A stretch of DNA of 64,000 nucleotides from Okamejei kenojei. Taxonomy: Eukaryota. The position numbers and the translations under genes were made by a program. Positions 57,601-60,600 of the stretch are shown here, piece by piece. The stretch covers positions 34,100,001-34,164,000 of the forward strand of contig CM069151.1 in NCBI GenBank assembly GCA_035221665.1. Direction: 5' to 3'. The notes under the pieces were generated by a model, which saw nothing but the letters and a program-made list of their open reading frames with translations, did no database searches and was not told where the DNA came from. Each line of letters opens with the position of its first letter. The first letter of the stretch is position 1.

Positions 57601-60600
57601 AAACCCATTCTTATCCAAGCCAAACTTGTTGTATCCATAAGTGTTATAGCCACCATCAAAGAGTGACTCGATAATTTCCACCTTAACATAAGGCAGGTAG
57701 GTCTCATCTTTCCTCATTCCAAATGGTGTGACCAGAGACCGATTGAATCCATACCGATTGTATCCTGAAACATCAAATCCTTCGATGTCAAAACCATCCC
57801 GATTGAAATTGTCTCTGCCGTAACCATTGCAATCCCAGCCAGCCCTGTCGAAACCGCTACGATCATAGCCCTGCCAGTCATACCCGTGAATATCGTAAAC
57901 TCTGTGTGCGTCTGGTTGTGCATCTTGATCAAAGCCTTTCCCATCATAGCCATCCTGGTCACGGTGGAGAGAATTGGAGTGAGTATAGTTGCAAGGGGCA
58001 CCGAGTGTGACTGGCACGTACACCGTGCAAAGCTGCTGCTGAGATAACAACAGGTCATCCGGGGCAATGTCAAACGGCTTCATCTTCACGTATCGGAACT
58101 CACATGGGTAACGGGGCAGACCAGTGGGGCTGCGGTCTTGCCAGTGACTCCACAGCTTATCTATAAACGCATAATGAGACAGAAATATTGGATCATAGGG
58201 ACTGAAAGGTGAGGCCATGTGGCCACCAACCCAGAGATGGAAGAGCCCTGAGATGGCTTCCATTTGAATGGAAAACTGGGCAAAGTCTTGTTCTGCTAAT
58301 ATCAACTGAATGTTGATTGCATCTGGAAGAATGATGGACGAGTTGAAGTGACGACGGAGGCAAGGCACCCATTCACTGCCCTGCTGGAAAGGGTGATGGG
58401 ACACGCAGTCAGTCTCAGACTCTCCATTTGCCCCAAAGAAGTTTCCCTGCCAAGCAGTCGAACTTTCCATCGAACCCGCGTCAATGGTCCACTCAAAATA
58501 TGGGATGCTGATGTCACATGATATCTTCTGCAGTTCTCGTTCCATCATTCGGAGGAAGTAACGGTGCCAGGGCAGGAAGGTGGACAGTCCATTAGCTTGC
58601 GGCGAGTACTCTGCTTTCAGCTTGGAAAACTCCTCCCAGATACCTGTTGGACCACAAGGAAGTGTTAACAATATTTCATTTGTGCCTTTAGCTCCTTATG
58701 GCACCACATGGCTCCTCACAGCCAATGGTGCATAGAAGGCTCTGCAATGTTTGAAGCATGTTGCCAATTTGGCCACAAAAAGGTGTCTCTAAACAACAAT
58801 CTAATGACTGAATGGTTCACTTGTTTTTGTCATGCTTGAGCAAATGTAACCAGGGAAGGAATGTCAATGATCTAAATATTCTCCAAATGAAGTACCCTAG
58901 TAGCACGTGGCTTTGGATTAAATCATTTTAGAAGATTACTTTTGCTAGTCCCTCCTTGAGCGGCAATCTTTTCACACAGAGGGTGCTGGGTATACGGAGG
59001 TGGAGGTAGTTGAAGCAGAAATTATAACATCATTTAAAAGACATTTGATCCATGGATAGGAAAGGTTAAGAGGGATATGGGCCAATCACAGGCAGGTGGG
59101 ACTAGTGTAGATGGGGTAGTTTGCTCTAGCATGGGCAAGTTGGGCTGAAGGGCCTGCTTCCATGCTGTATGTCTCGATGACTATGAATGCTGCAATGCCA
59201 CATCTCCATTGGATTTACTGTCAGGGGATGCACCAACCAGTTTGCTTGAGACGATAAAGCAATTTTGGGCTAGGGCGAGGTGATGGGATGTCAGTGTGGG
59301 CTGATGGGAAGGAGGGGGAAGCATCTTGTTGGTGAAACTGTGGATACCTGTTTCTCCTACCCGCATGGTTGTTGAGCGACAGCGTATATGTTAATGACGT
59401 CTATTGTAAGGTGAATGTTAGCCAAGAGAACTGTTCCGCTCTTCTCCAGACGATGCCATGCAATGTTTTACCTGGAGCTGAGAGGATGCAGCTTGGTGAA
59501 CCATCTGATGTGGAACAGGGCACCGTGCAACCATGCGAACACTGCACTTGTCATTGTATACACACGAGCAGGTTCAAAAGGTCAGGGACCGGACACAGCT
59601 ACATCAACATTCCCTCAGAAAGCACAACGCCATTGCATTTGTACATGTGCAGTATTCTGCACAAATATACTCCCCAATGGCTCTCCACCAACTTAAAACA
59701 CAACGTGAATGCTTGGGATTATTCTCCACTTGGCCTGGACAAGTGCAACTTCAACAAAACTGAAAAGAGCATATAACAGCAGACATATCTGGCACCTCAC
59801 TCATCCCTGCATAATCACTCCTTGCTGATTGCAGTATGTTCCAGCCTCAAAATCCACTGTTATTCACCAAGACTTTGATAGTACTGTGCAAAACTGTGAT
59901 CTCTGCCATCTGAAGAAAGAAAAGCACTAATACAGCGAGATCACCACCTCCTCCATGTCCCACCCGGAATTGCAGTTCCTTTATCATCGTTTTGTTGAAA
60001 TGCCTGCACCAAGTTTCAAGGTAGCACCTTCATCACACAGAAAGCTGTGGTTCAAGAACTGTGGGAAATTAGGGGCTGCCATTAAATGTTGGTCGTGCAA
60101 GCGACAGCCAGCCGTGTGTTGTAAATGAACTAACAGTACGTGCCCATAGATGACAGAGACTGGAGCTTACCCTGTTTGAAGTAGAGATCGCGTATTGCTG
60201 CCTGGTAAACCATCATTTCCTCAGCCATCATGTCGCGGATCTCCTTGCGCTGGCTGACATGCCGACAGTTGCACTCGATCACCCCGGTGTAGCTGCAGAC
60301 GCAGATCTCGCAGCCGTACTCGAAGGACTCTCCGAAGCGGTAGGAGCGACCATGGAAGGTACAGCCACAGCCCTGGCTGCACTGGACATCCTCACACCGC
60401 TGGCCAGGCCTGAAGCTGACCACCTCTCTCCCCAGCTCACCTCGGTTGAGAGCCTGGCAGCGAGAGATTGGCAGATATTCACAGTGATAGGTGTAGGCTG
60501 CAGAGAACCCGAGATAGTTGAAACCCTCCCGGTTAATTCCGACGCAGTCAAACTGGGCACGGTTGTAACCGTCCGCGTTGAACCCTGCTGCATCAAACTC

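Follow-up and report, generated by a model that had tools for sequence, protein, structure and literature searches.

A tyrosinase-fold domain with four of its six copper ligands replaced is an internal module of kielin/chordin-like protein in Okamejei kenojei

The stretch of Okamejei kenojei DNA analysed here (the window; 64,000 nucleotides) holds most of a skate-like gene encoding kielin/chordin-like protein (KCP), and the tyrosinase-fold domain encoded in it is an internal module of that protein. The pseudo-tyrosinase module of KCP is real, ancient and not restricted to this genome. The first-pass annotation had recognized the domain itself correctly but missed that it belongs to the interior of KCP, that it is pan-bilaterian rather than chondrichthyan, and that among six-His proteins with matching flanks those of choanoflagellates are nearest to it. 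Its catalytic residues are gone, yet constraint has preserved its fold and expression, which is the mark of a pseudoenzyme; activity would have gone with the ligands, and the domain very probably forms no dicopper centre and has no oxidase activity. We regard it as reasonably probable that this ancient non-catalytic domain is a scaffold or binding module in KCP, a secreted BMP modulator.

The KCP gene in the window and its splicing

The closest named protein is the kielin/chordin-like protein of Rhinoraja longicauda (P0161, 3204 aa), to which 33 collinear pieces of the window were aligned by tblastn, covering 2020 residues within positions 388-2462. Five consecutive exons splice to a frame of 933 aa with 0 stops, 93.7% identical to the Rhinoraja protein. 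Because of this collinearity and the stop-free frame, the window is taken as most of a KCP gene, which extends past both window ends. A long tandem VWC array is present, as seen in collinear exons over Rhinoraja KCP residues 1264-2462 and in Pfam VWC matches, and it is preceded by a cassette in the order EGF–Kunitz–GYD-repeat–Tyr–GYD-repeat. In orthologues the layout runs from a signal peptide through a LamG-like head, a coiled coil, one VWC domain, the cassette and the VWC array to a VWD domain; the signal peptide, N-terminal head and C-terminal VWD were seen in P0161 and P0007 and would lie beyond the window in Okamejei kenojei. The tyrosinase motifs quoted by the first-pass annotation are all on the minus strand, across two exons: RKEIRD starts at 60249 inside the Kunitz-bearing exon, which ends RKEIRD...YFKQ, and the remaining motifs are carried by the exon 58643-57257 (1387 bp). 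Coordinates are collected in Table 1.

Table 1. Features of the KCP gene in the window (window coordinates)
Feature	Position	Strand	Evidence
EGF-like exon, first part of the cassette	61865..62004	-	Pfam EGF E 0.0015; 83% HSP to Rhinoraja KCP 388-440; GT-AG ends; contig X5 record 15 connects it with the following exon
Exon with Kunitz domain (61086-60916), first GYD/GFD block (~60870-60510), Cys-rich VWC-like bridge and first tyrosinase-fold helix (60249-60171)	60171..61086	-	Pfam Kunitz E 1.7e-15; translation; spliced contigs
Phase-1 GT-AG intron within the tyrosinase-fold domain (1527 bp; GTAAGC...CAACAG)	58644..60170	-	absent from single contigs of runs X1, X4, X5
Tyrosinase-fold pseudoenzyme core (second-type copy, D2)	57991..58643	-	Pfam PF00264 E 3.4e-26; PDB sequence matches; orthologue model and fold search
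HA1: Lys (AAA) replacing His	58615..58617	-	alignment
HA2: Asn (AAT) replacing His	58591..58593	-	alignment
HA3: His retained	58564..58566	-	alignment
HPF-motif His (38/39 D2; Gly in 7/7 choanoflagellate-type domains)	58393..58395	-	alignment; coordinate derived from reading frame
HB1: Ser (TCA) replacing His; His in 0/59 KCP-type domains	58249..58251	-	alignment
HB2: His retained; lost in six teleost rows and hagfish	58237..58239	-	alignment
GGHM His, D2-specific (37/39; 19/19 vertebrate rows), non-canonical ligand position	58219..58221	-	alignment
HB3: Tyr (TAT) replacing His; His in 0/39 D2	58171..58173	-	alignment
Remainder of large exon: second GYD/GFD block (~57950-57555) and helical region	57257..57990	-	translation; confident in P0002 cassette model; matches choanoflagellate flanks
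Cys-rich exon ending the cassette, phase-1 donor to VWC array	53658..53842	-	X4 record 9 and X5 record 12 are contigs showing splicing at either end
First VWC exon past the cassette	51650..51823	-	Pfam VWC E 1.7e-08; contig-joined to cassette
Further VWC-repeat exons, collinear with Rhinoraja KCP to residue 2462	522..50688	-	tblastn

Splicing was checked in contigs of 4 of 16 listed sequencing runs; the contigs with exon joins come from related organisms, with 12 and 50 differing letters in the large exon, and from two studies. Three exons are joined with introns removed in X1 record 5, four exons through the first VWC exon are joined in X4 record 9 and X5 record 12, and in X5 record 15 the EGF exon is continuous with the next one. 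X1 and X4 are flagged 'probably DNA' and no run with matches is recorded as RNA in the run listing; the contigs are read as spliced messages because their joins coincide with GT-AG boundaries. The tyrosinase-fold domain is thereby shown to be spliced into one message with the VWC array. In teleosts, the database models P0003, P0005 and P0006 end right past the closing exon of the cassette, as if running into the intron; there may also be a shorter secreted form that lacks the VWC array. The introns also carry repeats. A fragmented LINE reverse-transcriptase remnant occupies 54851-55942 (minus strand; Pfam RVT_1 E 1.8e-12 at 55595-55942) in the intron following the large exon, with similar pieces near 9111-9473. 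SINE-like high-copy repeats, covered very deeply by each of the four runs, lie at about 61300-61620, 59100-59160 and 53330-53490.

Two kinds of module flank the domain. The G-[YF]-[DN]-x-x repeat (GYD) blocks consist of about 10% each of Tyr, Phe and Asp and 13% Gly; they were modeled with fairly high confidence, gave no Pfam or Atlas match and occur also in choanoflagellate proteins, and a Ca-binding or Tyr-display repeat is possible. The Kunitz domain has a binding-loop insertion of 3-5 residues with a variable P1 residue across vertebrates, which makes protease inhibition doubtful; its last helix continues into a conserved GACC motif that is also present in choanoflagellates.

Ligand positions, predicted fold and conservation

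The identity of the fold, proposed earlier from motifs, was confirmed by Pfam Tyrosinase (PF00264), which the second exon alone matches at 93.4 bits (E 3.4e-26; gathering cut-off 22.6). A PDB sequence search with the domain returned 55 solved sequences at E<=0.001, among which bacterial tyrosinases scored about 1e-22 and a Streptomyces enzyme 3e-23, while human TYRP1 matched at E 2.6e-06 in its CuB part only. The six ligand positions HA1, HA2, HA3, HB1, HB2 and HB3 are occupied by K, N, H, S, H and Y, leaving two His, one per metal site; the domain is thus a member of PF00264 that lacks the six His of a type-3 copper enzyme. These positions were assigned by alignment to solved tyrosinases and hemocyanins and to six-His relatives, with F-4/D+4 motifs anchoring the alignment at both metal sites, and the two comparisons agree with each other and with the manual reading of the first-pass annotation (K, N, S and Y at HA1, HA2, HB1 and HB3; only HA3 and HB2 kept).

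The four-helix bundle of tyrosinases is predicted to be intact. A model of the Rhinoraja domain, which is 95% identical and has the same six residues, reached pLDDT 94.8 and pTM 0.93, although its alignment is rich in active tyrosinases and may favor that fold. This orthologue model matches Bacillus tyrosinase 3nm8 (Z 31.4, rmsd 1.6, 236 residues aligned) and human TYRP1 (Z 24.9, rmsd 2.0). The whole-cassette model of shark P0002 (pTM 0.71 over 1098 residues, 230 of low confidence) has mostly confident GYD blocks and suggests that the cassette is one compact unit. With this model, the PDB matches listed by Foldseek were all type-3 copper proteins, and viral models gave no match at E<=0.001; as the GYD region was folded only within the cassette, this is no evidence of a new fold. 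ESM Atlas returned only generic tyrosinase clusters (score 0.82) for P0040 and no usable match for the GYD/C-terminal part of P0002. The absence of a transmembrane helix, already noted, holds for the full-length orthologue P0161, in which a hydropathy scan found no 19-mer above 1.9 after the signal peptide.

When long proteins were searched with the shark domain, the 30 returned out of 279 candidates belonged to sharks, rays, chimaera, coelacanth, sturgeon, salamander, teleosts, hagfish, tunicates, brachiopod, molluscs, scorpion, spider and mantis shrimp, and a hemichordate protein was matched in another search. No frog or amniote protein was among the matches of three protein searches, which scored limited candidates, and no cnidarian or sponge protein was identified among the matches. 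Most invertebrate KCPs have two cassettes, giving a first (D1) and a second (D2) copy. As a side observation, reciprocal loss is possible, since P0028 and P0024 show D1 only while P0012 and vertebrates show D2 only; P0024 and P0012 may be incomplete at the N-terminus.

Alignment of 59 KCP-type domains, taken from the window and 40 proteins with near-duplicates included, found more than three of the six His in none and not one of the six in 10, although the P0022 fragment of a wider set keeps four. HB1 is never His in the 59, HA1 is Tyr in all 20 D1, and none of the 39 D2 has His at HB3. The replacements are steady in the non-teleost jawed-vertebrate rows (n=12), with K/R in 12, N in 10, S in 12 and Y in 12 at the four replaced positions; teleosts and hagfish additionally lack HB2, all six His are gone in three of their rows, and pocket residues are highly variable in teleosts, hagfish and molluscs. 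Other His, which the first-pass annotation had listed as possible occupants of the dicopper site, are strongly conserved: in D2 (n=39) the HPF His (motif HHPF) is found in 38, the GGHM His in 37 and the LSHY His in 31; HB2 is His in 19. The tyrosinase-fold domain is more identical to Rhinoraja than both VWC blocks in all 10 vertebrates compared, such as Latimeria (73% vs 61/64%), Pleurodeles (70% vs 58/61%) and Myxine (48% vs 39/37%); in 9 of the 10 the VWD domain is the more conserved. Ligand loss throughout the 59 domains, the intact fold and this excess of conservation over neighboring VWC repeats uphold the view that the domain was selected as a non-catalytic one.

Origin and role of the module

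Two trees were computed, both containing no TYR/TYRP sequences: a careful one of 60 hand-picked domains, and a quick one of 99 rows, made after removal of short rows, of most hemocyanins and of those six-His rows that ranked lower. In the careful tree KCP domains form one clade (95/95), divided into D1 (100/99) and D2 (97/99), with vertebrates inside D2 beside tunicate D2 (98/95). Ten other domains form a clade of choanoflagellate type (100/100) that includes P0185, P0186 and P0042 of Salpingoeca rosetta and, among others, EukProt records. A sister relation between this clade and KCP received SH-aLRT 92 in the quick tree and is unsupported (57/5) in the careful one, so that a common origin rests mainly on shared architecture. 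Each flank of the cassette separately matches choanoflagellate-type proteins, by E-values within a nine-protein file, and these proteins end in a C-terminal hydrophobic anchor. All six His are present in 5 of the 7 choanoflagellate-type proteins in the alignment, and in P0185 and P0188. Separately, the choanoflagellate-type cassettes of P0042 and P0043 have lost 2-3 His independently, a case of parallel degeneration. P0049, P0067, P0070, P0080, P0083 and P0086 form a further clade of tyrosinase-like proteins of 700-1100 aa with Gly at the aligned HA2, which on sequence may be another degenerate family or one with a shifted ligand.

A history may be drawn from these relations. The cassette would have derived from a pre-animal cell-surface oxidase and entered kielin behind its first VWC domain; HB1 would have been lost after entry, followed by duplication to D1 and D2 before the protostome-deuterostome split, and vertebrates would have retained D2. 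In KCP the domain probably forms the rigid centre of a compact module of Kunitz domain and GYD repeats, held between the LamG/coiled-coil head and the BMP-binding VWC array. Such a module would present a surface for binding, to which the re-lined pocket probably contributes, and KCP would be positioned or anchored in the matrix by it. That the domain has a binding or scaffold role exceeding mere folding is somewhat favored on present evidence, against which it counts that the pocket is variable in teleosts, hagfish and molluscs, as a role in structure alone would equally allow.

That structural alternative, a dead domain kept only to fold and to hold the flanking repeats around a pocket that binds nothing, is unlikely in our estimate but has several points for it. 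Pocket residues vary by lineage, with no canonical His in 10 of 59 domains; many of the 73 vertebrate-invariant columns are Trp, Pro, Gly, Cys or Phe; some lineages keep a single copy, D1 in P0028 and D2 in P0012 and vertebrates; and mammalian KCP is described without a cassette, in the portion of PMC7073173 available. Set against these are the pocket K/R, S and Y, invariably present in the 12 rows of non-teleost jawed vertebrates, and the cassette's phase-1 boundaries, by which it could drop out in frame, yet it stands in all 30 long proteins, which were found via the cassette and give no frequency. A re-tooled metal site, in which a single Cu or Zn is bound by the His of HB2, GGHM, LSHY and HPF and serves structure, sensing or other chemistry, has in its favor that the GGHM and LSH His are each present in 19 of 19 vertebrate rows, the HPF His in nearly every D2 and the waterkeeper Glu in 31 of 39 D2, and a His before HB3 is reported to aid CuB coordination (in part of PMC11803259). 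It is nevertheless distinctly improbable: 7 of 19 vertebrate rows have lost HB2, 8 of 39 D2 are without the LSH His, D1 carries Asp at the GGH position in 17 of 20, and Tyr at HB3 with Lys/Arg at HA1 would crowd the site.

Two further readings have next to no probability left. One, that the domain is a working tyrosinase or else a diverged paralogue of TYR/TYRP1/DCT whose His have been misaligned, could appeal to the Pfam score above cut-off and to the TYRP1 fold match, but the anchoring motifs fix the alignment at both sites and the TYRP1 sequence match is confined to CuB and far weaker than that of the Streptomyces enzyme. Judged by features of chordate type g (given in part of PMC11803259), the HA1-HA2 distance is 8 instead of 16-24, HB1 is followed by Gly and not Asn, and the FRNxxEG motif is absent; with the missing membrane anchor, these agree with the first-pass annotation that the domain is not TYR/TYRP-like. 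The other, a separate tyrosinase-like gene merely adjoining KCP whose fusion is a gene-model artefact, draws on the three teleost models that stop just past the cassette and on the closing exon's donor GTCGGT, of non-ideal consensus. It is largely refuted already, since in X4 and X5 contigs from two studies the tyrosinase exons run on to the first VWC exon with no intron between them, P0007, P0008 and P0161 have the LamG/coiled-coil head before the cassette, and the order is identical in shark, coelacanth, salamander, brachiopod and molluscs. Returning to the scaffold or binding module, a more specific and quite doubtful version is that the dead site is a receptor pocket for matrix bearing tyrosine, DOPA or catechol, or one that takes in the Tyr-rich GYD repeats of the cassette itself; kielin would thus tether its BMP-binding array to phenol-crosslinked matrix, a choanoflagellate-type oxidase having become a matrix sensor for BMP signaling that was later shed in mammals.

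The module adds a vertebrate tyrosinase-fold locus beyond TYR, TYRP1 and DCT, from a branch reported absent in this lineage, and implies that ancestral KCP was larger than the mammalian protein used to define its function. It offers a clean, datable conversion of enzyme to pseudoenzyme, with six-His choanoflagellate counterparts, duplication to two differently degenerated copies and lineage-specific retention. When tyrosinases of fishes, molluscs and chelicerates are counted from Pfam, the counts include a domain whose residues suggest that it would be unable to hold a dicopper centre.

Comparison with known systems

Arthropod hexamerins, cryptocyanin and pseudohemocyanin are type-3 copper folds that have lost His and taken non-catalytic roles; the hexamerin-type proteins belong to the PF00372 line and are free storage proteins, not modules of signaling modulators. 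Vertebrate TYR, TYRP1 and DCT (gamma subclass, type g) have the common type-3 copper fold with the KCP domain but differ in six retained His, long CuA spacing and a membrane anchor, and their sequence match is weak and CuB-limited. The short-spaced secreted tyrosinases and polyphenol oxidases (alpha subclass of Aguilera 2013; types a-f of Meitil 2025; PF00264) have the same fold, the short HA1-HA2 spacing, F-4 and D+4, the seventh His and the waterkeeper Glu, whereas in the KCP domain 4 of 6 copper ligands are replaced and the whole is embedded in a matrix protein of 3,200 aa. The His motifs are defined in PMC3658974, which, in the part available, reports the secreted alpha subclass as absent from hemichordates, echinoderms, cephalochordates and chordates.

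The choanoflagellate Kunitz-tyrosinase proteins (Salpingoeca rosetta P0185, P0186, P0042), of which no characterized member was found in the literature searched, have the same order of Kunitz, GYD, Cys bridge, tyrosinase fold, GYD and Cys-rich end; they differ in mostly having six His, a C-terminal membrane anchor and Kazal/TIG domains and in lacking a VWC array. To our knowledge and by published descriptions, Xenopus kielin and human KCP are without the cassette. The tyrosinase module of KCP is not described in the accessible text of PMC3334994, PMC6071037 or preprint 10.1101/2021.07.10.451900, and 'tyrosinase' occurs 0 times in PMC6750614; in a section of PMC11667028, tyrosinase sequences of great length that carry a kielin/chordin-like domain were noted as outliers. 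The literature searched, which covered few subscription papers, yielded no description of how the ligands were lost, of the duplication or of a link to choanoflagellates. The domain already carries a Pfam label, and the fusion is visible in automatic annotation and passingly in one paper; the dead site, history and function appear undescribed.

KCP itself binds BMP-7 and enhances signaling (excerpts of PMC7073173). Since mammalian KCP, described there as CR repeats plus VWD only, still modulates BMP, the cassette is dispensable for that activity. Published KCP, as the mouse and frog proteins are presented in parts of PMC7073173 and PMC6750614, consists of CR/VWC repeats and a VWD only and enhances BMP signaling. 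The gene in the window is the same one, with its long VWC array, C-terminal VWD and signal peptide in orthologues and collinearity with Rhinoraja KCP, but with an EGF-Kunitz-GYD-Tyr-GYD cassette of about 870 aa behind its first VWC domain.
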